Shown piece after piece: positions 13,912-54,132 of a DNA stretch of 64,000 nucleotides. Each line of letters opens with the position of its first letter. Positions within the stretch are counted from its first letter, which is position 1. Below the pieces are notes generated by a model. It saw only the letters and a program-made list of their open reading frames with translations, ran no database searches and was not told where the DNA came from. Source of the DNA: an uncultured Chloroflexia bacterium. GTDB taxonomy: Bacteria > Chloroflexota > Anaerolineae > Anaerolineales > Villigracilaceae. The stretch covers positions 88,201-152,200 of the forward strand of contig CAVSAF010000023.1 of NCBI GenBank assembly GCA_963725805.1. Direction: 5' to 3'. A program made the translations under genes and the position numbers.

Positions 13912-14391
13912 ATGAATATCCCAACAGAAACGGCGCGCGAAATGGCGCTGCTCGAAAATATTGAAGGCGATCCAGATATAACCCAGGCCTCCCTCGCCAC
14001 CCGTCTCGGCGTGGCGGTTGGAACGGTGAACTGGCATCTTAAACGCTTGATCGATAAGGGCTATGTCAAGATCAAGCGCGCTGAGCGCAAGAAACTGCGC
14101 TATATTATCACGCCTGAAGGCATCGCCTTGCGCGCCCTCCTTACAGTGGATTATATTGAACAGCAGTTCCTGCTTTATCGGAACACGCGCCAGCGTGTAC
14201 GCGAGCATTTGCAGGAGATAAAAGCAGCCGGTTTTGAAAAAGTCTCCATTCGTGGCGAAGGTGATGTGGCTGATATTTGCCGGCTTTCCTGCCTGGAACA
14301 AGGTCTAACCTTCACTTCAGACGATAATGCACCAGTCCTTGAAATTGTTGGATTCAGGGTGCTTTTACACCTGAATGGCAGCCAGGATTAA
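13912..14391 (+). CDS. Winged-helix (MarR/wHTH-type) transcriptional regulator
   Basis: ITQASLATRLGVAVGTVNWHLKRLIDKGYVKIKRAERKKLRYIITPEG is a classic HTH plus wing. It is the only DNA-binding protein recognised in the window. Confidence 0.7.
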   Translation: MNIPTETAREMALLENIEGDPDITQASLATRLGVAVGTVNWHLKRLIDKGYVKIKRAERKKLRYIITPEGIALRALLTVDYIEQQFLLYRNTRQRVREHLQEIKAAGFEKVSIRGEGDVADICRLSCLEQGLTFTSDDNAPVLEIVGFRVLLHLNGSQD

Positions 14392-14442
14392 TGAGAAAGA
14401 TATCTTGATGATTGGAGGAATGGGCATCATTTCTTTGCCTGA

Positions 14443-15471
<1,029 letters not shown>

Positions 15472-15472
15472 G

Positions 15473-16357
15473 ATGGCTAGAACAGAGATGGCAAAATCCG
15501 AAATTGAACAAACCGATCCCGAAAAATGGGACATGGTCATCAGCCCAAAGCGCAACCTGTTTGACCTGCGCCTGCGGGAATTATGGCATTCGCGCGATCT
15601 GATCATGCTGTTTGTCCGGCGGGATTTCGTTTCCGTTTACAAACAGACCATTTTAGGCCCGCTCTGGTACCTGATCCAACCGCTGTTGACCACGATTGTA
15701 TTCACGGTTGTCTTTGGGAATATAGCCAAGCTGCCTACGGATGGGCTGCCGTCCTTCCTGTTCTACATGTCTGGAACGTTGATCTTTTCTTATTTTGCCA
15801 GCAGCCTTACCAAGACCTCCGAAACTTTTGTGAGCAATTCCAACCTGTTCGGCAAAGTCTATTTTCCTCGATTGACCGTTCCGGTGTCCATTTTATTCTC
15901 CAACCTGATCGCTTTTGTGATCCAATTCGGATTCTTCCTGGTATTCATGGCTTATTTTTTCTTGCGCGGAACGCCGTTGCACCCGAATTGGTGGATCCTT
16001 TTCACCCCGGTGCTGTTGCTGATGATGGCCGGCCTGGGCCTGGGATTTGGCATCATCGTGTCTTCACTAACGACCAAGTACCGTGACCTGCGTTTTCTGG
16101 TGCAGTTTGGGGTCCAGCTTCTGCAATACGTAACCCCGGTAATCTACCCGCTATCGGCCATGTCGCCCAAATACCAGGCGCTGATACGTTTGAACCCGCT
16201 CACATCTGTCGTCGAGGCTTTTCGCTATGCCTACCTCGGCTCCGGCTCCATAAACTTTATCCAACTCGGCTACAGTTTCGCCGTCATGCTGGTCGCGATC
16301 ACCATCGGTGCAGTGATCTTCAACCGTGTGGAAGCAACTTTCATGGATACGGTATGA
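15473..16357 (+). CDS. wzm: ABC-2 type polysaccharide export permease (Wzm/TagG-like), copy 1
   Basis: ELWHSRDLIMLFVRRDFVSVYKQTILGPLWYLIQPLL is the canonical ABC-2 N-terminal motif, followed by 6 TM helices. The start is set at ATG 15473 rather than ORF-track 15311, which overlaps fcl. Confidence 0.85.
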   Translation: MARTEMAKSEIEQTDPEKWDMVISPKRNLFDLRLRELWHSRDLIMLFVRRDFVSVYKQTILGPLWYLIQPLLTTIVFTVVFGNIAKLPTDGLPSFLFYMSGTLIFSYFASSLTKTSETFVSNSNLFGKVYFPRLTVPVSILFSNLIAFVIQFGFFLVFMAYFFLRGTPLHPNWWILFTPVLLLMMAGLGLGFGIIVSSLTTKYRDLRFLVQFGVQLLQYVTPVIYPLSAMSPKYQALIRLNPLTSVVEAFRYAYLGSGSINFIQLGYSFAVMLVAITIGAVIFNRVEATFMDTV

Positions 16358-17640
16358 GCACTACTGTCATCCAGGTGGAAAACCTGTCCAAGGCTTACCG
16401 GTTGGGCCAGATCAATTCCGGCACGCTCTCCGATGATATTAAAGTCTGGTGGGCCAAGGCACACGGCAAGCCCAATCCGCTGCTCAAGATAGGGCAGGAG
16501 AATCACTACAACCGGGAAGGCGAAACCCTTTGGGCGCTCAATGACGTCAGTTTTTCTGTTCGGCAGGGAAGTGTGCTGGGGATCATCGGGCGAAACGGGG
16601 CGGGAAAAAGCACCGTTCTTAAAATCCTCTCCCGCGTGACGGCGCCTACCAGTGGCCTGGTGAAAGTGAAAGGCCGGATTGCCAGCCTTCTGGAAGTGGG
16701 GACGGGATTCCACCCCGAATTGACCGGGCGTGAGAATATTTATTTGAACGGTGCCATCCTGGGTATGAAACGGTCGGAAATCGACCGCAAGTTCGATGAA
16801 ATCGTAGATTTTTCCGAAGTCGAGCAGTTCATCGACACTCCCGTGAAACGCTATTCTTCAGGGATGTACGTTCGCCTGGCTTTCGCGGTCGCGGCTCACC
16901 TCGAGCCTGAAATTCTGGTCGTGGATGAAGTGCTGGCAGTGGGAGATGCGGAATTCCAGCGGAAATCTCTCGGCAAAATGGGTGATGTGGCCCAGCAAGG
17001 TCGCACGGTCCTGTTTGTAAGTCACAATATGTCCGCAATCATGCGCCTGACCCAGGAGGCGATTGTGCTCGAGAAAGGTTGCCTGGCAATGCGGGCAGCC
17101 TCTCCTGAGGCAGTGGAATATTACCTCTCTGAAGGGGAGTCAAGGGCAGGGGAACGAATTTGGGATAGGGATGAAATTCCCTTGGATGCAGCACCTTTCC
17201 GACCGTCCGCCTTGCGCCTGCTTGATCAGAAAGGCCAGGTGGTGGAGACGGTTCGCTCGGTGGAACCATTTGCTGTGGAGATGGAATATTTCCTGGATGC
17301 TCCGCTGACGGGTTTGCGCATCGGCCTTTATCTTAATTCAACCCGGGGGGACCAGGTCCTGACCACTTTTGATACAGATGAAGGCGCCCGCTTTGAAAAA
17401 TACACCTCCCGCCCGGCTGGTCATTATGTCAGCCGCTGCGAATTCCCAAAGGATCTTTTGAATAACGGGCGGTATATTTTGGGCGTCAATGCCAGTTCCT
17501 ATCGCATCCGGCGTTACTTCATGGATGAGAAGGCCCTGGCTTTTAATGTGGATACTGCCGGGGCACCCGGGATGCAATGGTCCGAGCCGCGGCCCGGTGC
17601 ACTGCGTCCGCGCCTGGAATGGAAGATCGAGACGAAATGA
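16354..17640 (+). CDS. wzt: ABC exporter ATPase (Wzt/TagH-like) with C-terminal glycan-binding (Wzt_C-like) domain, copy 1
   Basis: Walker A GRNGAGKST, signature YSSGMYVRLAF and Walker B ILVVDEVL. A ~180-aa extra C-terminal domain (about 17104..17640) is beta-rich. The start has an ATGA overlap with wzm. Confidence 0.8.
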   Translation: MSTTVIQVENLSKAYRLGQINSGTLSDDIKVWWAKAHGKPNPLLKIGQENHYNREGETLWALNDVSFSVRQGSVLGIIGRNGAGKSTVLKILSRVTAPTSGLVKVKGRIASLLEVGTGFHPELTGRENIYLNGAILGMKRSEIDRKFDEIVDFSEVEQFIDTPVKRYSSGMYVRLAFAVAAHLEPEILVVDEVLAVGDAEFQRKSLGKMGDVAQQGRTVLFVSHNMSAIMRLTQEAIVLEKGCLAMRAASPEAVEYYLSEGESRAGERIWDRDEIPLDAAPFRPSALRLLDQKGQVVETVRSVEPFAVEMEYFLDAPLTGLRIGLYLNSTRGDQVLTTFDTDEGARFEKYTSRPAGHYVSRCEFPKDLLNNGRYILGVNASSYRIRRYFMDEKALAFNVDTAGAPGMQWSEPRPGALRPRLEWKIETK

Positions 17641-19229
17641 AACCGAAATCGCTCATCAAGAACGTGATGCGGGAGTTGCCATTCAGTGCGGATATCTACT
17701 GGTTATTGCGTGACCGCGATCATAAACCTCACAGCCGTTTTGATATGGAAGCCCTGGCAGGTGCGCTGCCAGAAATAATGGCACAGGCAAAGCCTTATAC
17801 AGAATCTGCTCCACAAGGCAGGAAGGTTTTTTTCTTTGCTTCCTGGCATTACTGGATCATGCACGCCGCCTTGAGCGGCCTCACTTTGCGTGGTCTGGGG
17901 CACGATGTAACCCTCGGTTACCTGCCATACGGTGATTATGACAAGCCAATCAGCCGTTTTGACTTGCGCCGGCAGGACTTGTACGCACACCAGATCTTGA
18001 AGAAGATGCAGCCCCTCTTGAAATCCATCTCTTTGCTGGATGTCAGACCAGCCGGTCAACTTCCGGAAGAACTGGCTGAAGCGCTGGAACAGCTCACGTT
18101 TATTGATACCCAATATATCAGGCAAAGGGAGGATGTAACCGGAACAGAACCGATCTATCTGCTTCGAAAGGAACGCAACCTTGAGGCCGCCCGCCGGGCT
18201 TTGGCTTATTTTGCGGAAAACCGCCCGGATGTGGTCATCATTCCGAATGGAATGATCCTGGAATACGGCGCCATTTACGAAACTGCCCGCCACCTCGGTA
18301 TCCCGACGGTCACTTATGAATTCGGGGAACAGGACCAGCGCATGTGGTTGGGCCAGAACCACCAGGTCATGTACTACGAATCTTTCAACGATCTGTGGAA
18401 GACCCGCCAAAACCGTAAATTGAATAAAGAACAACGCAACTGGTTGGAAGATTTCCTGCTTGGACGGCAGGGGCTTTCCAAGGGCGGGAAATTTGCCCAT
18501 TTATGGCAAAAGGCCGGCCGCGAGGGGGGTGCGAAAATTCGAGCTTCGCTTGGTCTGGATGACCGGCCGGTCGTGCTGTTACCAACCAACGTGCTGGGAG
18601 ATTCTGCCACACTTGGCCGGACAGTCTTCAGCCGGTCAATGACCGATTGGATTGAACAGGTAATCCCCTTTTTTGCGAACAGGTCCGAGGTCCAGTTGGT
18701 GGTGCGGATCCATCCCGCCGAATCCTGGACGGTCGGCCCATCGGTGGCGGAAATTATTTACAAGTTACTGCCAGAACTGCCCCCTCATATCCATCTGATC
18801 GGTCCCAAGGAGAAGGTCAACACCTACGACCTGATGGAAATGGCCGATCTGGCGTTGGTTTACACAACGACCGCCGGGGTGGAGATGGCGACACGCGGCA
18901 TCCCGTTGTTGGTGAGCGGGCGGGCTACCTACCGAAAACGGGGATTTACCCTTGATGCGGATAGCTGGGAGGAATATTTTCAGAAACTGGAACAAACATT
19001 GGCCAACCTGCCAGCCAATCGATTATCGCAAGAGCAAATTGACCAGGCCTGGAATTATGCCTATGCATATTTCCACGAGTTTACACGCCCTTTCCCATGG
19101 CACCTTGAGAAGATCATGGCTGATCTGGCCAAGCGCCCAATTTCTTATGTGCTCAGTCCGGAAGGCCGCCGGGAATATGAAACCACCTTCCAGGAATTGG
19201 CCGGGGCTCCAATTGATTGGCAGTCCTGA
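17637..19229 (+). CDS. KpsC/KpsS (Capsule_synth)-like GT-B protein; candidate CMP-ulosonic acid (beta-Kdo-type) transferase
   Basis: ...RPVVLLPTNVLGDSATL...FFANRSEVQLVVRIHPAE...TYDLMEMADLALVYTTTAGVEMATRGIPLLVSG echoes the LQVxxDSQ...LxxKxHPxD layout of Capsule_synth proteins. It is homologous to 38305..39942. ATGA overlap with the wzt stop. Confidence 0.45.
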   Translation: MKPKSLIKNVMRELPFSADIYWLLRDRDHKPHSRFDMEALAGALPEIMAQAKPYTESAPQGRKVFFFASWHYWIMHAALSGLTLRGLGHDVTLGYLPYGDYDKPISRFDLRRQDLYAHQILKKMQPLLKSISLLDVRPAGQLPEELAEALEQLTFIDTQYIRQREDVTGTEPIYLLRKERNLEAARRALAYFAENRPDVVIIPNGMILEYGAIYETARHLGIPTVTYEFGEQDQRMWLGQNHQVMYYESFNDLWKTRQNRKLNKEQRNWLEDFLLGRQGLSKGGKFAHLWQKAGREGGAKIRASLGLDDRPVVLLPTNVLGDSATLGRTVFSRSMTDWIEQVIPFFANRSEVQLVVRIHPAESWTVGPSVAEIIYKLLPELPPHIHLIGPKEKVNTYDLMEMADLALVYTTTAGVEMATRGIPLLVSGRATYRKRGFTLDADSWEEYFQKLEQTLANLPANRLSQEQIDQAWNYAYAYFHEFTRPFPWHLEKIMADLAKRPISYVLSPEGRREYETTFQELAGAPIDWQS

Positions 19230-19253: not shown

Positions 19254-19943
19254 ATGATCAAATCATTTACCTTGAGTCTCAAACAGCGCTTTCCCGGACT
19301 GGCTGCATTCGCAGGGAAATTGCTGCGCGGTGAGGCCGGACAGGTACGCAAGACCATTCGCGGGCAGGGTAATGTATTTACCGCAGATGGCGCCAAGCTT
19401 TCGGGCGCGCATGTGGATATCATCGGTGACAACAACCTGATTGAGATTGGTTCAGGCAGCACCCTCACAAATGTCCATTTCCGCCTACGCGGCTCAGGTC
19501 ATAAAATCGAATTTGGCAGGAATTGCCGCGTCAGCCGTGGGGCAGTGCTCTGGTTTGAAGATCATGATGGAGTATTGCGGGTCGGTTCTGGCACCACGAT
19601 GGTTGAAGTCCACGTAGCAGTAACGGAGAATTCCAGCGTGAGTATCGGCGAGGATTGCATGCTGGCCAACGATATTGACATCCGCACTGGCGACAGCCAT
19701 TCTGTGATTGACACGCAGACCGGCGAACGGCTGAACTTTGCCGGGGACGTTGTCCTGGGCCGGCATGTCTGGATTGCCCCGCATACGGTTGTATTGAAAG
19801 GTGTAAATATTGGTGAAAATTCGATCATTGCAACGGGTGCGGTTGTCACCAAATCGTGTGGACCCGGCGTTATCGTTGGCGGAAATCCTGCCAGGGTGAT
19901 CAAGACAGGCGTTTCCTGGAAGCGGGAACGAATTTCAAGGTAG
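19254..19943 (+). CDS. Left-handed beta-helix (hexapeptide-repeat) O-acetyltransferase
   Basis: Imperfect hexapeptide repeats (IIGDNNLIEIGSGS..., VVLGRHVWIAPHTVVLKGVNIGENSIIATGAVVTKS...GVIVGGNPARVI). Confidence 0.75.
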   Translation: MIKSFTLSLKQRFPGLAAFAGKLLRGEAGQVRKTIRGQGNVFTADGAKLSGAHVDIIGDNNLIEIGSGSTLTNVHFRLRGSGHKIEFGRNCRVSRGAVLWFEDHDGVLRVGSGTTMVEVHVAVTENSSVSIGEDCMLANDIDIRTGDSHSVIDTQTGERLNFAGDVVLGRHVWIAPHTVVLKGVNIGENSIIATGAVVTKSCGPGVIVGGNPARVIKTGVSWKRERISR

Positions 19944-20021: not shown

Positions 20022-21005
20022 ATGACTCAAACACGTGTCCTTGTTACTGGTGCAGGCGGCTTCATTGGCCACCACCTGGTGACGTTCCTGCGCGAAAAAG
20101 GCTACTGGGTGCGCGGCGTTGACATTAAGAAGCCTGAATTCAGCCAAATGGACGCGGATGAATTTGAATTGCTTGACCTGCGGCGTTGGGATAACTGCCT
20201 GCAGGCCACGCGCGGAATCGATGAAGTCTATGGCCTGGCTGCTGATATGGGTGGGATGGGCTTTATTTCCTCCCACCATTCGCAGATCCTGCACAACAAT
20301 TCCCTGATAAATATTCATACGCTCGAAGCCGCCCGCCTCAACGGCGTCAAGCGTTACTTCTATACCTCATCCGCCTGCGTGTATCCTGAATTCAAACAGA
20401 CTGAAACAAACGTGGTCCCGCTAAAGGAAGAGGACGCCTATCCTGCCATGCCGCAGGATGCCTATGGATGGGAAAAGCTGGTCATGGAAAGGCTGTGTAC
20501 ACATTACCGGGAAGATTACGGCCTGGAAACCCGCATCGTCCGTTTCCATAATATTTTCGGCGAAGAGGGCACCTGGGAGGGCGGGCGCGAAAAAGCGCCG
20601 GCAGCCATGTCCCGAAAAATCGCTTTTGCCAAGTTGACCGGCAATCACGAGATTGAAATGTGGGGCGACGGCGAACAGACGCGTTCCTTCTGCCACATCA
20701 ACGATTGCCTGGAGGGCATTTACCGCCTGATGCGCTCCGATTACAAGTCCCCCCTTAACCTCGGTTCCGACCGCATGGTGACTATCAACGAGTTGGCCCA
20801 TATCATTGCCGGGATTGCCGGTATCGAGATCACCATCAAGCACATCTCCGGGCCGATGGGCGTGCGCGGCCGCAATTCAGACAACACCCGCCTGCGTGAG
20901 GTGCTCCAATGGGAACCGCAGCTTACCCTGGAAGCGGGTCTCCAACGAACCTATCCATGGATAGAAAAGCAGGTGGCGCAGAAACTGGAGATGGAACACC
21001 AGTAG
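20022..21005 (+). CDS. gme: GDP-mannose 3,5-epimerase homologue (GDP-L-galactose/GDP-L-gulose forming)
   Basis: Near-collinear with plant GME: VTGAGGFIGHHL, LAADMGGMGFI, SSACVYPEFKQ (catalytic Cys), QDAYGWEKL (Tyr), RFHNIFGEEGTWEGGREKAPAAM (Lys). Confidence 0.8.
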   Translation: MTQTRVLVTGAGGFIGHHLVTFLREKGYWVRGVDIKKPEFSQMDADEFELLDLRRWDNCLQATRGIDEVYGLAADMGGMGFISSHHSQILHNNSLINIHTLEAARLNGVKRYFYTSSACVYPEFKQTETNVVPLKEEDAYPAMPQDAYGWEKLVMERLCTHYREDYGLETRIVRFHNIFGEEGTWEGGREKAPAAMSRKIAFAKLTGNHEIEMWGDGEQTRSFCHINDCLEGIYRLMRSDYKSPLNLGSDRMVTINELAHIIAGIAGIEITIKHISGPMGVRGRNSDNTRLREVLQWEPQLTLEAGLQRTYPWIEKQVAQKLEMEHQ

Positions 21006-21007: not shown

Positions 21008-21907
21008 ATGGCATTTTTAACCATCTTTACGGCACCCAAGCCATTCACCAACCCACATATCGCTGTCATTCAGCGCAATGCTGTCCAGGCATGGAAGTTG
21101 CTGCCGGATGTCGAGGTCATCTTGATAGGCGATGAAGCCGGTATCCCGGAAGCGGCCAGGGAATTTGGCATTAAAAATGTGCCGGAGGTGGAACGCGACG
21201 AAAAAGGCATTCCTCTGGTCAATTCGGTTTTGGAGATTGGACACAAATATAGTGACAGTCCTTTCTTGTGCTATGCCAATGCTGACATGATCCTGATGTC
21301 GGACCTGATACGGGCTGCAAGACAGGTCTCGGAACAGGCCAGCGACTTCCTGGTGGTTGGCCAGCGCTGGGACCTGGACCAGAAAGAGCCGCTTGATTTC
21401 AGCGGTGATTGGGAATCCCGCCTGCGGCTGGACGTGGCCCAGCGCGGCAAGTTTTATTCACCCTGGGGCATCGATTATTTCATCTTCCCGCGCCATCTCT
21501 ATACCGATGTACCCAATTTCACCATTGGTCGCCCGGCCTGGGATAACTGGATGGTTTACCGCGCTCACACGACCTTTGGTATGGCCATCGACGCATCCCG
21601 GGATGTCCTGGTTGTTCACCAGAACCATGATTACAGCCACCTGCCTGGCAATAAGCCTCCCTATGGCTCGGACGTGGCCAGGTCGAACCTGGCCAAGGCC
21701 GGCGGGCGGAAACGTGTCTACAACATCCTGGATACCGATCACGAACTCGTCGGCGGGCGCATCCGCAGGCCGCAGGTCAGGCTCGTGCGCCTGCTGCGCC
21801 TCTTGGAGCGGATGTTCATCAACGACGAGCAAAAAGGTTGGGGGTGGTTGATCTCCGTGAAGCTTCAGCAGATGCAGCGTCCGCTGGCGGTAAAACCGAG
21901 GAGATGA
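21008..21907 (+). CDS. Conserved hypothetical protein, possibly a GT-A-like glycosyltransferase
   Basis: Start ATG 21008 (MAFLTIFTAPKPF) is 3 nt after the gme stop; ORF-track 20909 overlaps gme. ...CYANADMILMSD...GIDYFIFPR... is suggestive of a GT-A fold, but I do not recognise the family. Confidence 0.3.
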   Translation: MAFLTIFTAPKPFTNPHIAVIQRNAVQAWKLLPDVEVILIGDEAGIPEAAREFGIKNVPEVERDEKGIPLVNSVLEIGHKYSDSPFLCYANADMILMSDLIRAARQVSEQASDFLVVGQRWDLDQKEPLDFSGDWESRLRLDVAQRGKFYSPWGIDYFIFPRHLYTDVPNFTIGRPAWDNWMVYRAHTTFGMAIDASRDVLVVHQNHDYSHLPGNKPPYGSDVARSNLAKAGGRKRVYNILDTDHELVGGRIRRPQVRLVRLLRLLERMFINDEQKGWGWLISVKLQQMQRPLAVKPRR

Positions 21908-21910: not shown

Positions 21911-22867
21911 ATGCGCATAGGTCATAACCCTGCCAGGTTTGTTGAAAAGGTGGCTCAACCGGCCGAAATTACTGTGACGGTCGTGAACTGTATCCCATTT
22001 TTGAGTGGATATTACGAGCAGAGTCTGGAGGTATTAAAGGCTTGCCTAAACAGCATTCATGCAAACACCCCGGAACCGCATGATTTGATGGTGTTCGATA
22101 ACCATTCCTGCCGGGAAGTGCGGGATTACCTAAAAGAAGCTTATGAGCAGGGTATTATCCAGTACCTGTTGCTTTCGGACAAGAATATAGGCAAGATCGG
22201 GGCCTGGAATTTCATGTTCGGCGCGGCGCAAGGCAAGTATGTTATTTTTTCCGACGGCGATATCACCTTCCGGCCGGGCTGGCTTGGGGCCTCTCTTGAA
22301 CTATTCGAAACCTTTCCGAATGTCGGCATGGTGACCGCCCGACCATATCGGGCCTCCCAGAGATATTCCGAGGCTACATTTGAATGGGCGCAGCAGCAGG
22401 GTCCGGGTGTGCTTGAAGAGGGGATATTCCTGGATTGGGAGACCGTTTTCGAACATGCGAGCAGCATCGGTGTGACTGAAGCGAAAGCACGTGATGACTA
22501 TTCAAAAGGACGCGACTACCGTCTGACCTATCATGGCAAGACTGCCTTCATCGGTGCAAGCCACTTCCAGTTCATGGCCCCGCGCGACCTGCTGCGCAAA
22601 GTCATCCCGCTTCCGTCGGAACAGCCCATGCGTGGGGAGCGCGGCCTCGATATTGCAGTTAACAAGATGGGCTGCTTGCGCCTGACGACCGAAATGCCGC
22701 TGGTTTTGCACATGGGTAACCGTCTGCCAGAATCCACCCGGACTGCCGGGACAGGACCAAGGCAAAAAAACCTGCTCCAGCGAATCTTGTGGTTGCCGGG
22801 CATCCGTCACTTTTTGCTGTGGTTGAATAATCGAATTTTTCAACTGTACTTTTTCAATGTGGAGTAA
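21911..22867 (+). CDS. GT2-family glycosyltransferase (paralogue of 24720..25760)
   Basis: ITVTVVNCIPFLSGYYEQSLEVLKACLNSI...LMVFDNHSCREV...FSDGDITFRPGW. It shares end-to-end architecture with 24720..25760 (GIAVLSYIPSHEGYFAQSLEILK...LLVFDNGSSLEV...YADGDVLFRPGW). Confidence 0.65.
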   Translation: MRIGHNPARFVEKVAQPAEITVTVVNCIPFLSGYYEQSLEVLKACLNSIHANTPEPHDLMVFDNHSCREVRDYLKEAYEQGIIQYLLLSDKNIGKIGAWNFMFGAAQGKYVIFSDGDITFRPGWLGASLELFETFPNVGMVTARPYRASQRYSEATFEWAQQQGPGVLEEGIFLDWETVFEHASSIGVTEAKARDDYSKGRDYRLTYHGKTAFIGASHFQFMAPRDLLRKVIPLPSEQPMRGERGLDIAVNKMGCLRLTTEMPLVLHMGNRLPESTRTAGTGPRQKNLLQRILWLPGIRHFLLWLNNRIFQLYFFNVE

Positions 22868-22870: not shown

Positions 22871-23752
22871 GTGACCGAAGCTGTACCCGCCTGTCCATTG
22901 TGCGCAGATGACCGCAGTAAATTCTTCGAACAAAGCGAATTCCGCGGTCAAAATGTGACCTACCGGATCTGTGAGAATTGTGGACTGGTTTACCAATCCC
23001 CGCGCATGACCCAGGCCGAATCTACCGCTTTTTATCCGCAGGAGTACCGCCTTCTCAACGAAGGCAGTGCCTTGCCAACCCAGCGTAATCTTGCCAACCA
23101 GCGCGGGCGTGCAGCCTCGCTCCTGGCATTTTCCAGGCCTTCTATGGGTGCGATCAGGCGCCATCTGGATATTGGCTGTTCAACGGGGTTGCTTTTGCAG
23201 ATTTTTCAGGAGACCTACCATTGCCAGTCAATCGGTATTGAACCGGGTGAAGCCCACCGCGACAATGCCCGTAAAGCTGGTTTGACCGTTTACGCTTCGC
23301 TGGATGAATTGGAACGAAACGAGACAGGCCTCTTTGATCTGATCAGCATGGCTCACGTTCTCGAACATTTACCTGATCCAGTCAGGTATCTGGCCCACTT
23401 GCGCGATAACCTTTTGGAGCCCACCGGATTGCTCTTGATCGAAGTTCCTAATCTTTATGCTCACGATTCTTTCGAACCAGCCCATTTGGTCGCTTACAGT
23501 GCTCATACTCTAAGGCAGATAATGGAAAAGACTGGCTTTGAGATCCTTCGACTGGAAGAGCATGGACGGCCGCGTTCGGCCTGGCTGCCGCTCTATATCA
23601 CCTTGCTGGCCCGTCCAGGGTCGGATCCAAAAGAGACATTCCGCCTGCGACCCGAAGGAAGCGTGAAATTTAAGCGCCGGGTTGGTATTTTTTCCCGGCA
23701 CGTCCTTGAACGGCTTTTTAATCGATGGATATGGGACGCGAATGGAGAATAA
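22871..23752 (+). CDS. Class I SAM-dependent methyltransferase with N-terminal Cys4 zinc ribbon
   Basis: GTG start. CPLC...(x22)...CENC is followed by the SAM motif HLDIGCSTGLLL and then DLISMAHVLEHLPDP. Confidence 0.75.
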   Translation: MTEAVPACPLCADDRSKFFEQSEFRGQNVTYRICENCGLVYQSPRMTQAESTAFYPQEYRLLNEGSALPTQRNLANQRGRAASLLAFSRPSMGAIRRHLDIGCSTGLLLQIFQETYHCQSIGIEPGEAHRDNARKAGLTVYASLDELERNETGLFDLISMAHVLEHLPDPVRYLAHLRDNLLEPTGLLLIEVPNLYAHDSFEPAHLVAYSAHTLRQIMEKTGFEILRLEEHGRPRSAWLPLYITLLARPGSDPKETFRLRPEGSVKFKRRVGIFSRHVLERLFNRWIWDANGE

Positions 23753-24719: not shown

Positions 24720-25760
24720 ATGCGTCAAGGACAGAATCCTGCCAAAATGGGGCTCCCCGCTTACGATCCCAAGCGATTGGGTATTGCAGTGCTTTCTTAT
24801 ATTCCTTCCCATGAGGGGTACTTCGCTCAATCCCTGGAAATCCTCAAATTTCAAATTGCCAGTATTCATCGCACCACGCGGGAATTTGATTTATTGGTTT
24901 TTGATAACGGCTCTTCTCTCGAAGTACAGCAGGAACTGCAGAGTTTACAAAAGGAAGGTCTGATTCATTTTCTTATTCTCTCCAGGTTTAATCTTGGAAA
25001 AACCGGGGCTTTGAACTGGATTTTGGCCGGTTTACAGAACGAATTAATTGGTTATGCTGATGGAGACGTGCTTTTTCGACCCGGTTGGTTTGAAAAATCA
25101 TTGGAAATCCTGCAGGCGTTTCCAAGTGCAGGAATGATCTCGGCCCAACCTTGTTTCTTTGATCCCTTGCGCGGTAAAGGGCAGGCCCATTTGGCACTGA
25201 AAAAAAACGGTGATCATTTCAAAATAACCAATGAAACTCTCGATCCATCTGCCGTTGAAGAATATGGACATGGAATTGGTTTGTCGTCGAAGGAGATTGA
25301 GGATTTGAAGAAGACCTCCAACCAGGTCATTGAAGAACACAAATCGGGTGTAAGAGCGGTAATGGGTGCTTCCCATATGCAATTTCTCATGCCGAGGGAA
25401 GTTGCCAGGCGTGTCATTCCCCTGCCTGCCACGTTTGCTCTCAGCCCCAAGGAGGACACGGTTCTGAACACCAATATTGACCAGGCTGGTTTTCTCCATC
25501 TCTCCACGTTGAAGCCCTATGTCCATCATATGGGAAATCGTTTGGATCAAGCTTTCATGGAGGAGATCCAACAGATGGATTTATCATCCATCCTTGGGAA
25601 TCCGCTTGCCAGGCAAGTGGTAAATACTTCGATGGACATGGGAAAAAATCAGCGATCGGCGGTCCGATTTCTCAGCACTATGTCCAGGCTCCCCTTTATG
25701 AAAAAATTGTTGCGGCGCTTTTACAATCTATTGTTTTATTACTACTCCCAATTAAAATGA
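24720..25760 (+). CDS. GT2-family glycosyltransferase (paralogue of 21911..22867), AT-richer
   Basis: See 21911..22867. One hand-counted line (24841-24900) is about 38% GC. Confidence 0.65.
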   Translation: MRQGQNPAKMGLPAYDPKRLGIAVLSYIPSHEGYFAQSLEILKFQIASIHRTTREFDLLVFDNGSSLEVQQELQSLQKEGLIHFLILSRFNLGKTGALNWILAGLQNELIGYADGDVLFRPGWFEKSLEILQAFPSAGMISAQPCFFDPLRGKGQAHLALKKNGDHFKITNETLDPSAVEEYGHGIGLSSKEIEDLKKTSNQVIEEHKSGVRAVMGASHMQFLMPREVARRVIPLPATFALSPKEDTVLNTNIDQAGFLHLSTLKPYVHHMGNRLDQAFMEEIQQMDLSSILGNPLARQVVNTSMDMGKNQRSAVRFLSTMSRLPFMKKLLRRFYNLLFYYYSQLK

Positions 25761-27199
25761 ATAAACGCATTTTCATCATCGCCGACCACGGCCTGGCGCT
25801 GATCTACTTCCTTCAATCCGATGTCATCCCCACCCTGCTTAAAGCCGGCGTGGAAGTGATCATGTTTACGGATGATGATGCTCGCCAGGCCATCCAGGAA
25901 CGTTTCCAACAGCCCGGCCTGACTTTCGAGGGCCTGCGGCTGGACCAGTGCGAACGCTATTTCCAGTCGACGCAGCCGTTTCTGCAGCGCTGCCTGGTCA
26001 TGTTGCGCTGGGCGGGCGGTTCCAAACGCATCAATACCACCGCCATGGACGGCAATTACCATCTCCAGGCGATGAGTTTTACGGGGCGCGGCCGGTTTGC
26101 CCTGCCGTTCCTGCGCCTCTTGATCTGGCTGATGCGCCGTTCGCACCTCCTGCGCAACCTTGTCGTCCGTGCTCAGAATCGCTTCACTCCCAATATCTAT
26201 GCCGACCTTTTTGAGAAATACCAGCCTGAACTGGTCGTTGCCCGCACACCTGGATGGCGCATGGATCGCTACATCCTGCGCGAAGCTGCTTCCAAAGGAG
26301 TCCGGACAGTGGCAGCCATTGCCGGTTGGGATAACCCATCATCCTATAATCTTAGTGGCGCACCGATGGACCATATCACCTGCTGGTCTGAAATCCAGAA
26401 AGAAGAGCTGGTGCTGGGTTCGGACTGGGACCCGCAGCGGGTTAACATATCCGGCATTCCGGCATATGATGGTTACTTCCTGCGTTCCTGGTTGATCCCG
26501 CGCGACGAATACTTCCGCCAGCATGGTCTCGATCCGCAGCGTAAACTGCTTTCTTATGCTTGCAGCTTCGAGACCCTCCATCCCAACTTCCCGAACATGG
26601 CTGCCATCATCGAACTGGTCAATCATAACGAGTTGACCGAACCTTGCCAGTTGCTGATCCGTTTCCATCCCAATCACTTCATCAAAGGCTCGCGCTTCGA
26701 GGCGGAGCGGCTGCGTACGGTTGAATATGTGAAGGACATGCCGCTCGTCCACATCGTGGAACCGGTTTCTTTGGGCGGCGGGCTGGGACATTACTCGGGT
26801 GAAGATATGCCCGAAAAAGCCTCCATGATGGCTTACACGGATGTCTTCCTGACGGTCTATTCCACCATGGTGGTCGAGACAGCCATCCACGATAAACCCA
26901 TCATCAGCGTAACCATTGATACACCCGGCGGATGGAATATGAAGGATGTCTATTCCCTGCCCTTGACCGCCATTGGCGATTGGCCCACCCACCAGCGCTT
27001 TCGCCAGTCGGGAGCAGGGCGCGTGGCTGCCAATAAGGAGCAGGTGCGCCAACTGGTCAATCATTATCTCAAGGATCCGGCTGCCGATACCGAGAAACGC
27101 CGTAAGTTCATCCAGGATGAATGCACCTTTACGGATGGCAGCGCCGGAAGACGAACGGGTTTGTACCTGCTCAACCTGCTGGATGGTTCCAAACTATGA
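25757..27199 (+). CDS. GT-B-fold protein of unknown specificity, distantly similar to the KpsC/S-like proteins
   Basis: Rossmann-like N-terminus KRIFIIADHGLALIYF. ...LLSYACSFETLHPNF...CQLLIRFHPNHF...YTDVFLTVYSTMVVETAIHDKPIISV has the same HP-motif layout as 17637..19229 and 38305..39942. ATGA overlaps at both ends. Confidence 0.3.
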   Translation: MNKRIFIIADHGLALIYFLQSDVIPTLLKAGVEVIMFTDDDARQAIQERFQQPGLTFEGLRLDQCERYFQSTQPFLQRCLVMLRWAGGSKRINTTAMDGNYHLQAMSFTGRGRFALPFLRLLIWLMRRSHLLRNLVVRAQNRFTPNIYADLFEKYQPELVVARTPGWRMDRYILREAASKGVRTVAAIAGWDNPSSYNLSGAPMDHITCWSEIQKEELVLGSDWDPQRVNISGIPAYDGYFLRSWLIPRDEYFRQHGLDPQRKLLSYACSFETLHPNFPNMAAIIELVNHNELTEPCQLLIRFHPNHFIKGSRFEAERLRTVEYVKDMPLVHIVEPVSLGGGLGHYSGEDMPEKASMMAYTDVFLTVYSTMVVETAIHDKPIISVTIDTPGGWNMKDVYSLPLTAIGDWPTHQRFRQSGAGRVAANKEQVRQLVNHYLKDPAADTEKRRKFIQDECTFTDGSAGRRTGLYLLNLLDGSKL

Positions 27200-27951
27200 T
27201 AACTCCCCAGGTCCTCGCCTTGATTCCTGCACGCGGAGGCTCGAAGGGCATCCCTCGTAAGAACATTCGTGCCTTTGCCGGTCATCCTTTGATTGCTTAC
27301 AGTATTGCCGCGGCTTTGCAGGCAGAGACAGTCACACGTGTGGTGGTTTCCACTGATGATCCGGAAATTGCCGAAGTTGCCCGTGCCTGGGGGGCAGAGA
27401 TACCCTTTATGCGTCCGGCAGGGCTGGCTGCAGACCGAACCACGGATCTGCCGGTCTTCCAGCATGCCCTGACCAGGCTGGCGGAGCACGAAAACTATCA
27501 CCCGGAGATCGTCCTGCACTTGCACGCCACCAGTCCGGTCCGGCCGCCGGGCTTTGTCGATCAGGCGGTCCGCCTGCTGCAAGAACATCCGCAGGCTGAA
27601 TGTGTGCGCAGTGTGGTTGCGCCTGGACAGAACCCCTATAAAATGTGGCGGATCGATCCTCAGTCTGGACATATGCTCCCGCTGCTGACCATTCCGGGAA
27701 TAGCTGAGCCTTATAATACCCCCCGCCAGCAGCTCCCTGCGGTATATCTGCAGACAGGCCACGTGAATGCCATCCGCCCGGCAGCCATTCTGGCCGGTTC
27801 GATGACCGGCCAGGTGATCCTGCCAATCATCATAAATGCCAGGTATGAAGTGGACCTGGATACTCCGGCAGATTGGGAACGCGGTGAATGGCTGGTCACT
27901 AATAATCCCCTGAATATGGTTCATCCGAGGAGAAAAGATGAGCAAGCCTGA
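27196..27951 (+). CDS. Acylneuraminate (CMP-ulosonic acid) cytidylyltransferase-like, copy 1
   Basis: LALIPARGGSKGIPRKNIRAFAGHPLIAYSI is the CTP_transf_3/NeuA-KdsB P-loop. Start ATG 27196 overlaps the previous stop (ATGA). Confidence 0.8.
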   Translation: MITPQVLALIPARGGSKGIPRKNIRAFAGHPLIAYSIAAALQAETVTRVVVSTDDPEIAEVARAWGAEIPFMRPAGLAADRTTDLPVFQHALTRLAEHENYHPEIVLHLHATSPVRPPGFVDQAVRLLQEHPQAECVRSVVAPGQNPYKMWRIDPQSGHMLPLLTIPGIAEPYNTPRQQLPAVYLQTGHVNAIRPAAILAGSMTGQVILPIIINARYEVDLDTPADWERGEWLVTNNPLNMVHPRRKDEQA

Positions 27952-29188
27952 GGTACTCGCCCTGATTCCGGCGCGTGGTGGCTCGAAGGGGATTCCGCGC
28001 AAGAACATCCGTCCATTTGCAGGTCAGCCCCTGATCGCCTTCAGTATTGCCGCGGGATTGCAGGCTCATTCAGTGACACGCGTGATCGTTACGACGGATG
28101 ATCAGGAAATTGCCCGAGTGGCGCGTGACTGCGGCGCTGAGACGCCATTCCTGCGACCGCCCGGGCTTGCCCAGGACCGCACGCTCGACCTGCCGGTCTT
28201 CCAGCATGCCCTGAATTGGCTGGCTCAACACGAAGATTATCATCCTGAAGTCGTCGTACACCTGCGCCCGACCACTCCCATTCGTCCTCCGGACCTGGTG
28301 GATCGCGCAGTAGCCCTGCTGCTGGCCCATCCCGAAGCGGACTCCGTGCGCGGGATAACGCCTGCTCATCAAAACCCGTTCAAGATGTGGCTTATGGATG
28401 GGGATGACAGGCCTATACGTCCATTGACAACCGTCTCGGGGATCGACGAGCCGTATAACTCGCCCCGTCAGGTTTTACCAACGGCCTACACCCACACTGG
28501 CCTGATCGACATCATTCGCCCGGCGACCATTCTGGACCAAAATTCGATGAGTGGCAGGACAATTTTGCCAATCCTGTTCGATCCGGCTTACGATGCAGAC
28601 CTGGATACTCCTCAGGATTGGAAACGTGCCGAACAAAGAATCCTTCACGATCCGCTCAAGATGGTCTGGCCGGGGAAACCACCCCGTGGCATGCCTGAAA
28701 CCGTCCGCCTGCTGATCCTTGATTTTGATGGCGTCCTGACCGATAACCGCGTCTGGGTGGACCAGGATGGGCGTGAGATGGTCGCAGCCAACCGCAGTGA
28801 CAGTCTGGGCATCCGGCAGCTTCAACAGGCTGGAGTGGAAACGGTTGTGATTTCCTTGGAAACCAACCCGGTTGTTGCGGCGCGTTGCCGGAAGATGAAC
28901 GTCCCCTTCATCCAGGGGGAAAGTGACAAGGCGGCCGCATTGAACAGGCTTCTCAGCGAGCGCAATCTGGATGCCAGCCAGGCTGTGTATCTGGGGAACG
29001 ATGTCAACGACCTGCCGTGCTTCCCGTTGGTGGGCTGGGCGGTGGCAGTCGCCGATGCCATGCACGAGGTGGCACGCCAGGCCGATTTTGTCTTGACTCG
29101 ACCCGGAGGTCACGCGGCAGTGCGTGAGTTATGCGATATGCTTATGGAGAAGTTGTCAAACAAACCGGGCTCTCAACACAGGGCCTGA
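27938..29188 (+). CDS. Bifunctional NeuA-like cytidylyltransferase fused to KdsC-type HAD phosphatase, copy 2
   Basis: The N-terminal 250 aa are a tandem paralogue of 27196..27951 (LALIPARGGSKGIPRKNIRPFAGQPLIAFSI). The C-terminal domain (about 28700..29188) is LLILDFDGVLTDNRVWVDQDGREMVAANRSDSLGIRQL...YLGNDVNDL, carrying the DxD HAD motif I and the KdsC/Kdn-9-P phosphatase pattern. Confidence 0.8.
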   Translation: MSKPEVLALIPARGGSKGIPRKNIRPFAGQPLIAFSIAAGLQAHSVTRVIVTTDDQEIARVARDCGAETPFLRPPGLAQDRTLDLPVFQHALNWLAQHEDYHPEVVVHLRPTTPIRPPDLVDRAVALLLAHPEADSVRGITPAHQNPFKMWLMDGDDRPIRPLTTVSGIDEPYNSPRQVLPTAYTHTGLIDIIRPATILDQNSMSGRTILPILFDPAYDADLDTPQDWKRAEQRILHDPLKMVWPGKPPRGMPETVRLLILDFDGVLTDNRVWVDQDGREMVAANRSDSLGIRQLQQAGVETVVISLETNPVVAARCRKMNVPFIQGESDKAAALNRLLSERNLDASQAVYLGNDVNDLPCFPLVGWAVAVADAMHEVARQADFVLTRPGGHAAVRELCDMLMEKLSNKPGSQHRA

Positions 29189-29274
29189 CTTCTGAATTAC
29201 AATTGCGCCCGCTCATCGGTTTGGCAGGCGAATCTTTTTCGGGTGACTGTTGAGGATCATCATTTTGGAGGAAC

Positions 29275-30162
29275 ATGCTGTCAGAAATTAAGATCGGAAA
29301 TTCTTTGGTTGGTGAAGGAAATCCTTGTTATGTTATTGCCGAGATCGGCATCAACCACAACGGAAATATTGACCTCGCCAAAAAACTCATCGATGCGGCT
29401 GTGGCAGCCAGGTGCAATGCCGTCAAATTCCAGAAGCGCACAATTAATATTGTCTATTCTGCTGAGGAATTGGCGCGCCCGCGTGAAAGCCCCTTCGGTA
29501 CTACGAACGGGGATTTAAAGTACGGCCTGGAATTCGATCAGGAAGATTACGCCGAGATCGATCGTTATTGCCGGCAGAACAATATTGCCTGGCTGGCCTC
29601 CTGCTGGGATGAACGATCGGTTGATTTTATCGAGCAATTTAATGTGCCCTGCTACAAGGTCGCCTCGGCCTCCCTCACCGATGACGGCCTGCTGCGTCAC
29701 ACCCGCAGTAAAGGCCGCCCGATCCTGGTGTCCACTGGCATGAGTACGCTGGGGCAGATCGACCATGCTGTGGATGTGCTGGGAAAAGAACAGCTGGTGA
29801 TCATGCACACCACCAGCACTTACCCTGCCTACTATGAAGAATTGAATTTGCGCGTAATCCCCATGTTGAAACAGCGCTACGGCTTGCCAATCGGATATTC
29901 CGGACACGAAACCGGGCTTTCCACAACCATTGCTTCTGTAGCCATGGGCGCTTGCGTGGTGGAGCGCCATATCACTCTTGACCGCGCCATGTGGGGCTCC
30001 GACCAGGCTGCCTCCGTCGAGCCACAGGGTTTCACTCACCTGGTCCGTGATATCCGCCTGGTCGAGACGGCCATGGGCGACGGCGTCAAACGTGTGGTTG
30101 AACGCGAAGTGCCGATCATGCAGAAACTGCGCCGGGTCGATTCAAAGGGTAACGGCGCATAA
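29275..30162 (+). CDS. NeuB-family (PEP-condensing ulosonic acid synthase) protein lacking the SAF domain, copy a
   Basis: CYVIAEIGINHNGNIDLAKKLIDAAVAARCNAVKFQKR...YKVASASLTD...ILVSTGMST...YPAYYEELNL...GYSGHETG...VERHITLDR. It ends at 295 aa with no antifreeze-like SAF domain. Confidence 0.75.
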   Translation: MLSEIKIGNSLVGEGNPCYVIAEIGINHNGNIDLAKKLIDAAVAARCNAVKFQKRTINIVYSAEELARPRESPFGTTNGDLKYGLEFDQEDYAEIDRYCRQNNIAWLASCWDERSVDFIEQFNVPCYKVASASLTDDGLLRHTRSKGRPILVSTGMSTLGQIDHAVDVLGKEQLVIMHTTSTYPAYYEELNLRVIPMLKQRYGLPIGYSGHETGLSTTIASVAMGACVVERHITLDRAMWGSDQAASVEPQGFTHLVRDIRLVETAMGDGVKRVVEREVPIMQKLRRVDSKGNGA

Positions 30163-31138: not shown

Positions 31139-31150
31139 GGATAAAGAAAG

Positions 31151-32191: not shown

Positions 32192-32196
32192 GATAA

Positions 32197-33027: not shown

Positions 33028-33051
33028 GTTCTGATTTGGAGAAAGTGGATT

Positions 33052-53313: not shown

Positions 53314-54132
53314 ATGCAATCAACCCCGATTTATGATTCAGCCCAATTAATTCCGCACGCCCTCCAGGAACTGAAGGAAGCATTGAATTACCGTCACCTG
53401 CTTTTCCAACTGGTGCGACGTGATATTGTTGCTCGCTATAAACGCTCCTTCCTTGGCGTGGCCTGGACCATGCTCAGCCCACTGGGTATCATGCTGGTTC
53501 TCAGCTTCGTCTTTTCTCAACTGTTTGGCCAGATCCGCGCATACCCTGCCTACATATTATGTGGCCTGATGGCCTGGAATTTCTTTTCCCAGAGCACCAT
53601 GATGGCAATAAGCAGCCTGGTTTGGGGAGGCGGATTGCTGCAACGCATTTATATCCCGCGTGCTGCTTTTGGCATCTCCGCGATTGGATCGGGCATGGTT
53701 AACCTGATCTTATCCTTTGTACCACTCATTATTGTGATGGCCATCACAGGGGTATCGCTCCGGATCACAGTAGCTTTCCTGCCAGTTTCTCTACTATTAC
53801 TGGCCTGTTTCACCCTCGGCCTGGGCCTGACGATTTCGACACTGGCAGTCTATTTCCCTGATGTGGCCGAGATGTACCAGATCATCCTGACTGCCTGGAT
53901 GTACCTGACTCCGATCATTTATCCGGAGACGATCTTTCCGGCCAAATACGCATTGATCTTGCATCTAAATCCCTTATATTACCTGGTCAAACTCTGGCGC
54001 CTGCCATTGTATGATGGGCGTTGGCCCACTTGGGGTGAGATCTGGCCGGCCATGGTGATAGCTTTCGGGATGTTGTTGGTGGGATGGCTCATCTTTACCT
54101 CAAAATCCGATGAATTTGCCTATCGTGTCTGA
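53314..54132 (+). CDS. wzm: ABC-2 type polysaccharide export permease (Wzm-like), copy 2
   Basis: YRHLLFQLVRRDIVARYKRSFLGVAWTMLSPL motif plus 6 TM helices. Confidence 0.85.
   Translation: MQSTPIYDSAQLIPHALQELKEALNYRHLLFQLVRRDIVARYKRSFLGVAWTMLSPLGIMLVLSFVFSQLFGQIRAYPAYILCGLMAWNFFSQSTMMAISSLVWGGGLLQRIYIPRAAFGISAIGSGMVNLILSFVPLIIVMAITGVSLRITVAFLPVSLLLLACFTLGLGLTISTLAVYFPDVAEMYQIILTAWMYLTPIIYPETIFPAKYALILHLNPLYYLVKLWRLPLYDGRWPTWGEIWPAMVIAFGMLLVGWLIFTSKSDEFAYRV

Follow-up and report, generated by a model that had tools for sequence, protein, structure and literature searches.

Coupling of a carbohydrate-binding Wzt exporter to a KpsC/KpsS-superfamily transferase in an Anaerolineales envelope-glycan locus, and a possible cap-and-export checkpoint

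The window analyzed here is a 64-kb stretch of contig CAVSAF010000023.1, and a glycan locus on its + strand fills nearly all of it. Judging from the sequence, the host is an Anaerolineales (Chloroflexota) bacterium. Metagenome-assembled genomes (MAGs) of Anaerolineales/Chloroflexota are the source of all named homologues and of all 45 loci from GTDB genomes. Locus L034 comes from a MAG assigned to Anaerolinea thermophila. The best explanation of the region is that it forms the export core of an envelope-glycan locus conserved in Anaerolineales; this core is composed of a MarR-family regulator, the permease Wzm, the ATPase Wzt with a C-terminal carbohydrate-binding domain (CBD), and the glycosyltransferase (GT) CSL1, whose gene is coupled to wzt. 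CSL1 is probably a transferase of cytidine monophosphate (CMP)-activated ulosonic or nonulosonic acids that belongs to the KpsC/KpsS superfamily. In the full model, the Wzt CBD reads the product of CSL1, in modified form, as a signal at the chain end. This model is plausible, and its probability is put slightly below even.

The genes of the export core overlap. The stop codon of wzm overlaps the start of wzt (ATGA), and the wzt TGA (17638-17640) overlaps the in-frame ATG at 17637 that opens CSL1. This second ATGA (17637..17640, + strand) was read from the sequence as a site of translational coupling. The CSL1 start was put at 17637, though 17577 is possible, because the orthologues begin at the ATGA. 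The first-pass annotation of this DNA had described both the coupling and the open reading frames (ORFs) of 16354-19229. Its ORFs and coordinates were accurate, and the overlap is confirmed and deeply conserved: of the 44 non-redundant loci, 39 have a 4-bp ATGA/GTGA overlap of wzt and CSL1, and assembly frameshifts seem to account for some of the others. The order Wzm-Wzt(CBD)-CSL1 is found in all 45 of the 45 GTDB loci at identities of 40-86%, and L050 and L056, two distant loci, again show the 4-bp wzt/CSL overlap. By tblastn synteny, every locus having upstream DNA carries MarR, an epimerase, Wzm, Wzt with its nucleotide-binding domain (NBD) and CBD, and CSL1, in that order. Behind CSL1 come an optional acetyltransferase or methyltransferase, a short-chain dehydrogenase/reductase (SDR), a 299-aa protein, a GT2 enzyme, and a methyltransferase.

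The CBD and CSL1 also vary together. Co-variation was taken as the correlation (rho) of pairwise-identity matrices, and is highest for Wzm-NBD (0.75) and CBD-CSL1 (0.73), followed by NBD-CSL1 (0.50) and Wzm-CSL1 (0.26). The pattern fits a module made of the CBD and CSL1, with physical linkage and one divergent clade adding to the signal. Compared with window positions 15473-17118, loci L001-L049 fall into two deep allele classes, with Wzm identities of 71-86% or 32-38% and NBD identities of 84-90% or 67-75%. These Wzm/NBD classes are independent of CSL1 identity, and therefore the transporter 'engine' has apparently been swapped by recombination while the CBD and CSL1 were kept together. By eye, the sequence type of the CBD showed no clear correlation with the kind of modifier gene beside CSL1 (acetyltransferase, methyltransferase, or none).

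Wzm is an ATP-binding cassette (ABC)-2 permease (15473..16357, + strand; Pfam ABC2_membrane, 70 bits), and its true ATG lies directly behind the TAA of the upstream gene. Wzt is a 428-aa protein (16354-17640). The NBD (16354..17118, + strand) matches Pfam ABC_tran with 76.8 bits over aa 62-193. Its phmmer matches include the Aquifex aeolicus Wzt (6amx/8dku; E 6e-63, aa 56-255) and TarH/TagH (E 1e-46 to 1e-48). A Wzt/TagH-related NBD, with an ABC-2 permease in the overlapping upstream gene, identifies the protein as a Wzt-type ABC exporter ATPase.

The C-terminal CBD of Wzt is a beta-sandwich (17152..17637, + strand). Pfam Wzt_C (PF14524) matches aa 287-400 with 33.2 bits, above its gathering cut-off of 30.4. 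The AlphaFold2 (AF2) model of aa 253-428 is an all-beta sandwich with a predicted local distance difference test score (pLDDT) of 86.7. In a Foldseek search of this model against the PDB, ranks 1-16 are Wzt CBDs without exception (6o14, 8dky, 8dl0, 8dne, 8dku, 2r5o, 7k2t, 5hno, and 5hnp), in agreement with a jelly-roll fold. The best matches by E-value are the A. aeolicus CBD 6o14/8dky, whose cap is 3-O-methyl-mannose (E 1e-7, template modelling (TM) score 0.74), the Escherichia coli O9a CBD 2r5o (E 3e-6), and the O12 CBD 5hno/5hnp, whose cap is Kdo (3-deoxy-D-manno-octulosonate; E 1e-5, TM 0.57-0.65). A family profile of the CBD found nothing meaningful among PDB sequences, and the link to Wzt CBDs is by fold comparison alone. 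The CBD subfamily is narrow, with 212 homologues, and the identity is at least 57% among those listed; PF14524 is present on all but one of the 120 CBD homologues listed. The first-pass annotation had put such a domain at about 17104-17640, and had regarded this as the only Wzt of the window to carry one. Both statements were right. The Wzt_C search, the model, and the top 16 Foldseek matches all find a Wzt-type beta-sandwich there, and a C-domain is missing from the window's other Wzt (264 aa, 54110-54904). That protein belongs to a second Wzm/Wzt pair (53314..54904, + strand; Pfam ABC2_membrane, and ABC_tran only) with no CBD and no adjoining CSL gene.

CSL1 (17637..19229, + strand) is a 530-aa protein of the KpsC/KpsS superfamily (Capsule_synth) and is predicted to be a CMP-nonulosonate transferase. 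Its PF05159 score of 26.9 bits exceeds the cut-off (20), with the match covering only aa 300-446 (profile positions 135-280 of 310), and the same family is precomputed for most CSL1 orthologues. The AF2 model (pLDDT 85.5, predicted TM score 0.86) is composed of two Rossmann domains with helical additions. The best superposition on this model is KpsC-N (8fux, 6mgc, and 8fuw), with a TM of 0.55-0.58 by target, a root-mean-square deviation (rmsd) of ~8 Å, and an E-value of 1e-6. Searches of PDB sequences with phmmer and with a 37-sequence profile found nothing meaningful for CSL1, so that the link to KpsC is by fold comparison alone, and WbbB is absent from the top 50 Foldseek matches.

The retaining Kdo transferases of GT99, GT107, and GT140 have a QxxxD motif, in which the Asp is the nucleophile and the Gln binds the carboxylate of Kdo, a (K/R)xHP motif for CMP binding, and a general-base Glu (PMC10148158, PMC12887879). 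In the translation of CSL1, N318-V-L-G-D322 (18588..18602, + strand) is an NxxxD variant of the nucleophile motif, and R357-I-H359-P360 (18705..18716, + strand) is the CMP-binding motif; both are invariant in the orthologues. The candidate general base is found in the 'YE' motif Y227-E228 (18315..18320, + strand; TYEFGE in translation), at the end of the N-domain strand 224-228 in the model, and E228 is invariant in CSL1 orthologues. A YE glutamate base has been described for KrkA and for the pseudaminic acid (Pse) transferase KpsS1 (PMC12887879), and Y227-E228 may be its counterpart. The register of these motifs was checked with two KpsC-N fragments of 73-76 aa, which were found with a published 45-aa KpsC-N peptide. 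The fragment with D160 and the K-V-H194-P run aligns to PF05159 positions 142-204. On the assumption of no indels, D322 and KpsC D160 both fall at approximately profile position 157, and H359 and KpsC H194 both at approximately position 194. CSL1 therefore appears to retain the nucleophile Asp and the CMP motif in the KpsC register, with Gln changed to Asn.

Because CSL1 has lost the Gln of QxxxD and is not built like WbbB, it is not strictly a GT107 or GT99 enzyme; it lies outside these families and most likely works like them. It is a single module, with neither the long coiled coil nor the sequence match to WbbB that GT99 would call for. The first-pass annotation had named the product of 17637..19229 KpsC/KpsS-like, and had likened it by layout to retaining beta-Kdo transferases. 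The first of these assignments is upheld by a profile match above the Pfam cut-off, by KpsC-N as the best global structural match, and by Asp and His in the same profile columns. The second survives for the superfamily and for RxHP and fails for QxxxD, which is NxxxD here, and for Kdo, which is improbable. In the structural comparison that it proposed, KpsC-N has the best TM, and WbbB is not among the top 50 matches. WbbB/GT99 was not the best precedent, as the KpsS1/GT118 type of nonulosonate (Pse) transferase is closer and CSL1 has no coiled coil or extra GT modules.

CSL1 is a member of a large family. When 1.84 billion cluster representatives were scanned in full with HMMER, 5563 clusters (50% identity) were found at E<=1e-3; the count was 3130 at E<=1e-10 and fell to 708 at E<=1e-30. 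The motif [T/P]-N-x-x-x-D lies ~37 residues ahead of (K/R)xHP in 85 of 102 full-length representatives. Among 92 diverse sequences, conservation is 92% for N318, 97% for D322, R357, and E416, 98% for E362, 99% for P360, and 100% for H359, and position 228 is E or D in 92%. In the sources, no function name is given to proteins of the CSL1 family; they are nearly always called 'hypothetical protein' and once carry a generic Pfam label. NCBIfam NF046086 (BFO_1060 family glycosyltransferase) scores 29.3 bits on CSL1 against a cut-off of 200, which would make it a distant relative at most. The window also encodes a paralogue, CSL2 (38305..39942, + strand; Pfam Capsule_synth, 26.8 bits), which starts 1 nt behind a NeuB-fusion gene. 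CSL2 is 25% identical to CSL1 over 339 aa (E 6e-21), and both have TNVxxD and VRxHPxE.

Seven distant representatives of the family were examined on their contigs. Six of the seven lie in clusters with NeuB and CTP_transf_3 genes, two of them clearly Pse-type, and in five a methyltransferase is fused to the CSL protein (P0244) or adjoins it. This resembles, by analogy, bifunctional chain terminators. Wzt(CBD) adjoins the CSL gene in three of the seven. In locus L050, Wzt(CBD) overlaps the CSL::methyltransferase fusion P0244 (5706-8387, 893 aa, with a C-terminal Methyltransf_11/25 domain); in L052 the order is Wzt(CBD), methyltransferase, CSL; and in L056 Wzt(CBD) overlaps CSL, which in turn overlaps a methyltransferase. 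The pairing of CSL with methyltransferases suggests that a cap may be a modified acidic residue (methylated, or here acetylated), by which the ideas of a methyl cap and of an ulosonic-acid cap are partly reconciled. Other natural CSL fusions (P0306, P0308, and P0386) carry tetratricopeptide repeats at the N- or C-terminus. It is possible, though less likely than not, that the NxxxD/RxHP proteins are a new family of CMP-nonulosonate transferases apart from GT99, GT107, GT118 (compared by description only), and GT140, with one sublineage wired to CBD-Wzt as a cap-and-export checkpoint that uses a methylated or acetylated nonulosonic acid on a non-lipopolysaccharide envelope polysaccharide across Anaerolineales.

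The donor of CSL1 is most likely a nonulosonic, NeuB-derived acid and not Kdo. The Chloroflexota have been reported to be without genes for lipopolysaccharide (LPS) biosynthesis and for the beta-barrel assembly machinery (PMC13319060). The product would therefore be an envelope glycan and no O antigen, with Kdo an improbable donor. The first-pass framing in terms of O antigen does not suit such a host, and the literal O-antigen/Kdo reading was dropped on account of the host phylum and because Kdo genes were not seen. Three NeuB and three CTP_transf_3 genes in the window make it reasonable that the locus makes CMP-activated ulosonic acids, as had been proposed. The accessory block at 27121..30162 (+ strand; Pfam) encodes a CMP-sugar synthetase, a CMP-synthetase::KdsC-like phosphatase fusion, and a NeuB-type synthase, for which the NCBIfam matches are PseF-like, KdsC/KDN-9-P phosphatase-like, and NeuB. 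The fused CMP-synthetase starts at 27938, and its partner is a KdsC/KDN-9-P-phosphatase-like domain of the haloacid dehalogenase (HAD) type. NeuB paralogues are found at 29275, 35515, and 36415, and the last is fused to SAF and to a xylose-isomerase-like TIM barrel. In total, 27121-42463 holds two or three separate ulosonic-acid pathways, together with GFO/SDR oxidoreductases. An aminotransferase was not seen in 27121-42463, a hint of deaminated acids, like ketodeoxynonulosonic acid (Kdn), or of otherwise unusual ones.

The context of the family supports a CMP-ulosonic (nonulosonic) acid as the probable donor, both in the distant relatives and in two divergent orthologous loci, L036 (50% identity) and L043 (40%). 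Behind CSL1, both loci carry a Polysacc_synt_2 dehydratase, an RmlD-like reductase, NeuB with SAF, a GT4 enzyme, and CTP_transf_3; the NeuB set of L036 is separated from CSL1 by a methyltransferase. No candidate transferase besides CSL1 was found in L036 and L043. In the window itself, the TagF/BFO_1060-like protein at 25757..27199 (+ strand; weak Pfam Glyphos_transf; NF046086, 47 bits) is a second candidate ulosonic-acid transferase. It carries an IRFHP motif and always lies ahead of the CTP / CTP-HAD / NeuB block, in many loci directly. Kinship of this protein to CSL1 was considered and rejected, as hhalign gave a probability of 4% and aligned IRFHP to VRIHP between different families. With the TagF-like gene at the first NeuB block and CSL2 at the second, CSL1 is neither the sole nor the nearest candidate. 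A further protein at 47584-48396 is MptE-like (PF01973) and faintly matches the Kdo III transferase WaaZ (21 bits). The MptE-like family includes Maf-type nonulosonate transferases, and this protein is possibly a fourth ulosonic-acid transferase of the window.

In the proposed mechanism, CSL1 would bind the CMP-sugar through R357-x-H359-P360 and E416, Asp322 of NxxxD would receive the sugar, and Glu228 would activate the acceptor hydroxyl, as in the enzymes whose motifs it shares; we infer that the reaction is retaining. CSL1 would thereby add a nonulosonic residue to the non-reducing end of a lipid-linked glycan. The neighbouring modifier would decorate this acidic end, which here would be the work of an acetyltransferase and elsewhere of a methyltransferase that is sometimes fused. 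The Wzt CBD would recognize the modified end and license export through Wzm/Wzt, and GT-C enzymes may handle the polymer outside the membrane. A terminal position of the residue is favored indirectly by the invariant coupling to CBD-Wzt, by the recurrence of this coupling in distant loci, by the CBD-less Wzt that has no CSL gene, and by the co-variation of the CBD with CSL1. The cap-and-export checkpoint of the first-pass annotation, built on an ulosonic acid, thus keeps its CBD, its transferase family, and its conserved coupling, and is weakened by the ~1/3 of loci that have no NeuB within 10 kb and by a CBD whose nearest structure is that of a methyl-cap binder.

Several observations weigh against the cap model, and its alternatives are built in part on the same observations. 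The alternative that survives best, which we consider unlikely, is that CSL1 attaches its residue within the chain or as a side branch, that the CBD reads a methylated (or acetylated) neutral-sugar cap, and that the wzt-CSL1 linkage is operon economy. The nearest CBD structure is the binder of 3-O-methyl-mannose, 6o14/8dky (PMC9445017), which outranks the Kdo-cap binder 5hno in Foldseek. This structural ranking leaves the ligand undecided, and if anything the modelled fold tilts toward a methyl-cap binder. The core of the locus resembles methyl-capped 6-deoxyhexan systems, with Gmd in most loci, an Fcl/Rmd-like reductase, GT4 enzymes, and one or two methyltransferases (PMC9445017). Gmd and reductase genes are typical of such deoxyhexans. 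The methyltransferase at 22871 is conserved, a second one lies beside CSL1 in several loci, and the conserved core methyltransferases could provide a methyl cap. One distant CSL gene, in a Pse cluster, adjoins a Wzx flippase, which implies in-chain use, and Acinetobacter baumannii KpsS1 and E. coli KrkA may serve as precedents by analogy. The co-variation of CBD and CSL1 may stem from mere physical linkage. Internal decoration has against it that the ATGA coupling to CBD-Wzt persists over identities of 40% to 95% and is met again in distant lineages, that the P0244 fusion ties the CSL and methyltransferase activities to one substrate end, and that the CBD co-varies more with CSL1 than Wzm or NBD do.

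The cap model further depends on the donor, and an improbable alternative is that CSL1 of the main Anaerolineales clade is a divergent GT-B enzyme that uses no CMP-ulosonic donor. In that case it would use another nucleotide-sugar or a phospho-donor, and its likeness to KpsC would be one of fold and nucleotide pocket. By tblastn over flanks of 10 kb in MAGs, NeuB/CTP_transf_3 was not found in 11 of the ~30 full-flank loci, that is, in about a third of the orthologous loci. A Pfam scan of 76 unassigned ORFs from those 11 loci returned GT4, GT2, Gmd, epimerases, and methyltransferases, and NeuB, CTP_transf_3, and KdsA-type genes were not among the 25 families listed. The scans of the window and of these 11 loci likewise showed no KdsA-type gene. 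Four of these clusters (L004, L023, L024, and L030) visibly end at Rrf2/Pst genes without a NeuB. MAGs with minimal loci include MFD04408.bin.1.215 (CAWHAM01), MFD04408.bin.1.46 (CAWDYX01), MFD01689.bin.1.12 (CAWIOV01), and MFD02809.bin.2.91 (CAWHNM01). In the window, the candidates at 25757-27199 and 38305-39942 adjoin NeuB/CTP genes, and CSL1 is 8 kb from the nearest. At the level of the protein, CSL1 has Asn where GT99/107/140 enzymes have the Gln for binding the carboxylate of Kdo, and the PF05159 match is limited to the C-terminal half. Generic GT-B proteins also beat KpsC on Foldseek E-value (2e-8), but their TM is 0.2-0.39 and their rmsd 12-17 Å, and no PDB sequence matches by profile. 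Another donor is hard to reconcile with the RxHP motif, the Asp, and the Glu, which are 97-100% conserved in the KpsC register, and with the NeuB/CTP_transf_3 clusters around the divergent orthologues, CSL2, and six of the seven distant relatives; moreover, the loci come from MAGs and the flanks extend just 10 kb.

Least probable is that CSL1 acts at the reducing end like KpsS/KpsC, placing a short ulosonic primer or linker on the lipid as a handle for the transporter, with the coupling serving assembly of a biosynthesis-export complex. CSL1 is among the invariant core genes, and PF00953 and PF02397 were not found among the window ORFs scanned, but an initiating enzyme may be encoded elsewhere, as wecA in E. 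coli is encoded away from its cluster. The likeness of CSL1 to KpsC/KpsS, the primers of ABC-exported capsules (PMC12887879), in Pfam and in structure is offset by the CBD of this Wzt, which the KpsMT-type ATPase does not have, by the reading of a non-reducing cap by the CBDs of characterized systems (PMC9445017), and by the single catalytic module of CSL1 against the dual module of KpsC.

The cap model can be set beside four known systems. Like the WbbB (GT99) and Wzt-CBD system of Klebsiella pneumoniae O12 and Raoultella terrigena, the window encodes an ABC-2 exporter ATPase with a C-terminal beta-sandwich CBD and, in the same cluster, a predicted CMP-ulosonic-acid transferase of the superfamily of WbbB with the Asp and HP elements, and 5hno/5hnp are among the CBD matches. 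Unlike WbbB, CSL1 has no detectable sequence match to that protein, no coiled coil, no extra GT modules, and NxxxD for QxxxD. The host also belongs to a phylum reported to lack LPS, the probable donor is not Kdo but a nonulosonate made by NeuB, and the cap role is a proposal here. Like KpsC/KpsS (GT107) of group 2 capsules, CSL1 has Capsule_synth above its cut-off, the KpsC-N TM of 0.55-0.58, the shared Asp and His columns, and a link to an ABC-2 exporter. It differs from them in consisting of one 530-aa module extended by helical regions at the N- and C-terminus, in having Asn for Gln, and in its candidate base, a YE glutamate where KpsC has the Glu66 position. The exporter here carries a CBD whereas KpsT has none, and no Kdo genes were seen here.

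KpsS1 (GT118), the KpsS-related retaining Pse transferase of the A. baumannii capsule, uses a YE-motif glutamate (PMC12887879), which the candidate base of CSL1 resembles in a comparison made by description only. CSL family members are found in Pse- or legionaminic acid (Leg)-type NeuB clusters, one of them beside the Wzx flippase. In contrast to CSL1, KpsS1 serves Wzx/Wzy capsule synthesis and is uncoupled from a Wzt-CBD exporter. The A. aeolicus WzmWzt, which has a methyl-cap-binding CBD, is the closest solved relative of the NBD and the CBD. Its CBD shares just 16-18% sequence identity with that of the window, and we know of no Capsule_synth-type gene coupled to the A. aeolicus exporter. 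Both systems have methyltransferases and genes for deoxyhexoses derived from guanosine diphosphate (GDP)-mannose in the core (PMC9445017).

The remaining genes of the core flank the Wzm-Wzt-CSL1 unit on the + strand. The MarR-family regulator (13912..14391; Pfam HTH_24/MarR) heads the export module and precedes Wzm in nearly all orthologous loci. It is followed by an SDR epimerase/reductase that is GDP-L-fucose-synthase-like (14449..15471; Pfam Epimerase) and conserved in the loci; NCBIfam GDPFucSynFcl scores 296 bits on it, under its 500-bit cut-off. In most orthologous loci, a GDP-mannose 4,6-dehydratase (Pfam E 1e-132) lies between MarR and the Fcl-like reductase (5784-6797 in L003, 5786-6808 in L005, and 5771-6793 in L024), and the window has none at the matching spot (14391-14449). 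Right behind CSL1, the variable 'modifier' slot is occupied by a hexapeptide O-acetyltransferase (19254..19943; Pfam Hexapep; NCBIfam maltose/WbbJ-type O-acetyltransferases). Its counterpart in other loci is a Methyltransf_11/25 gene, or the slot is empty. The SDR epimerase/reductase at 20022..21005 (Pfam Epimerase) is the most conserved core gene, with identities of 72-91%, mostly 84-91%.

Downstream of it is the 299-aa core protein (21008..21907), whose family is unassigned and which is conserved in nearly every orthologous locus at 41-83% identity. Searches of Pfam, NCBIfam, and the PDB gave zero matches for this protein. An invariant H204-Q-x-H-D-Y-x-H211 is present in alignment A4, and the beta-strand/'NAD' pattern near the N-terminus may point to a GT-A-like enzyme of a novel kind. 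Two further core genes encode a conserved GT2 glycosyltransferase (21911..22867; Pfam Glycos_transf_2) and an S-adenosylmethionine-dependent methyltransferase (22871..23752; Pfam Methyltransf_23, 76 bits), the rival source of a cap, which is present in most orthologous loci. The scan of the window's ORFs found no initiating phosphoglycosyltransferase of the WecA/MraY or WbaP type (PF00953, PF02397). The window does encode several membrane proteins that are GT-C-like, three of them PMT_2-like (8555, 49178, and 51201) and one GT87/PIG-U-like (12575). This suggests extracytoplasmic processing or ligation of the glycan.

The second Wzm and CBD-less Wzt belong to a second ABC-dependent glycan system (53314-63263), which also includes rmlC, rmlB, rmlA, rmlD, a 1214-aa protein, and a GT4 gene. 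In the 1214-aa protein (58466-62110), the N-terminus weakly matches a methyltransferase, aa ~270-340 probably form a coiled coil, and a GT2 module and a WbsX module (453 bits) are present, a predicted layout that resembles multi-module polymerase-terminators of the WbdD/WbbB type. Elsewhere, a sulfotransferase gene pair is found in L043 (18438-20485) and in L050 (8377-10118), where it lies directly behind CSL, and genes for adenosine 5'-phosphosulfate (APS) kinase and sulfatase occur in some other loci. The glycan is therefore perhaps sulfated in some lineages.

Cap-dependent Wzm/Wzt export has been studied in LPS O-antigen systems, for which the caps cited are methyl, methyl-phosphate, and beta-Kdo. 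The Chloroflexota are reported to lack LPS, and their outer envelope layers are chemically undefined. In this abundant and poorly cultured Chloroflexota order, a CBD-Wzt welded to a KpsC-like enzyme is central to a conserved locus, which suggests a 'tag chain end, then export' checkpoint in LPS-less bacteria. The analysis also exposes a large uncharacterized enzyme family of thousands of clusters, with an NxxxD variant and a consistent, family-wide association with NeuB and CMP-synthetase genes. If the model is true, this would be the first cap-and-export checkpoint outside LPS O-antigen biology. The family would then supply new nonulosonic-acid transferases for glycoengineering and a natural test of the reach of the double-displacement mechanism of Kdo transferases, and the locus would offer a testable handle on the envelope glycans of the Chloroflexota.

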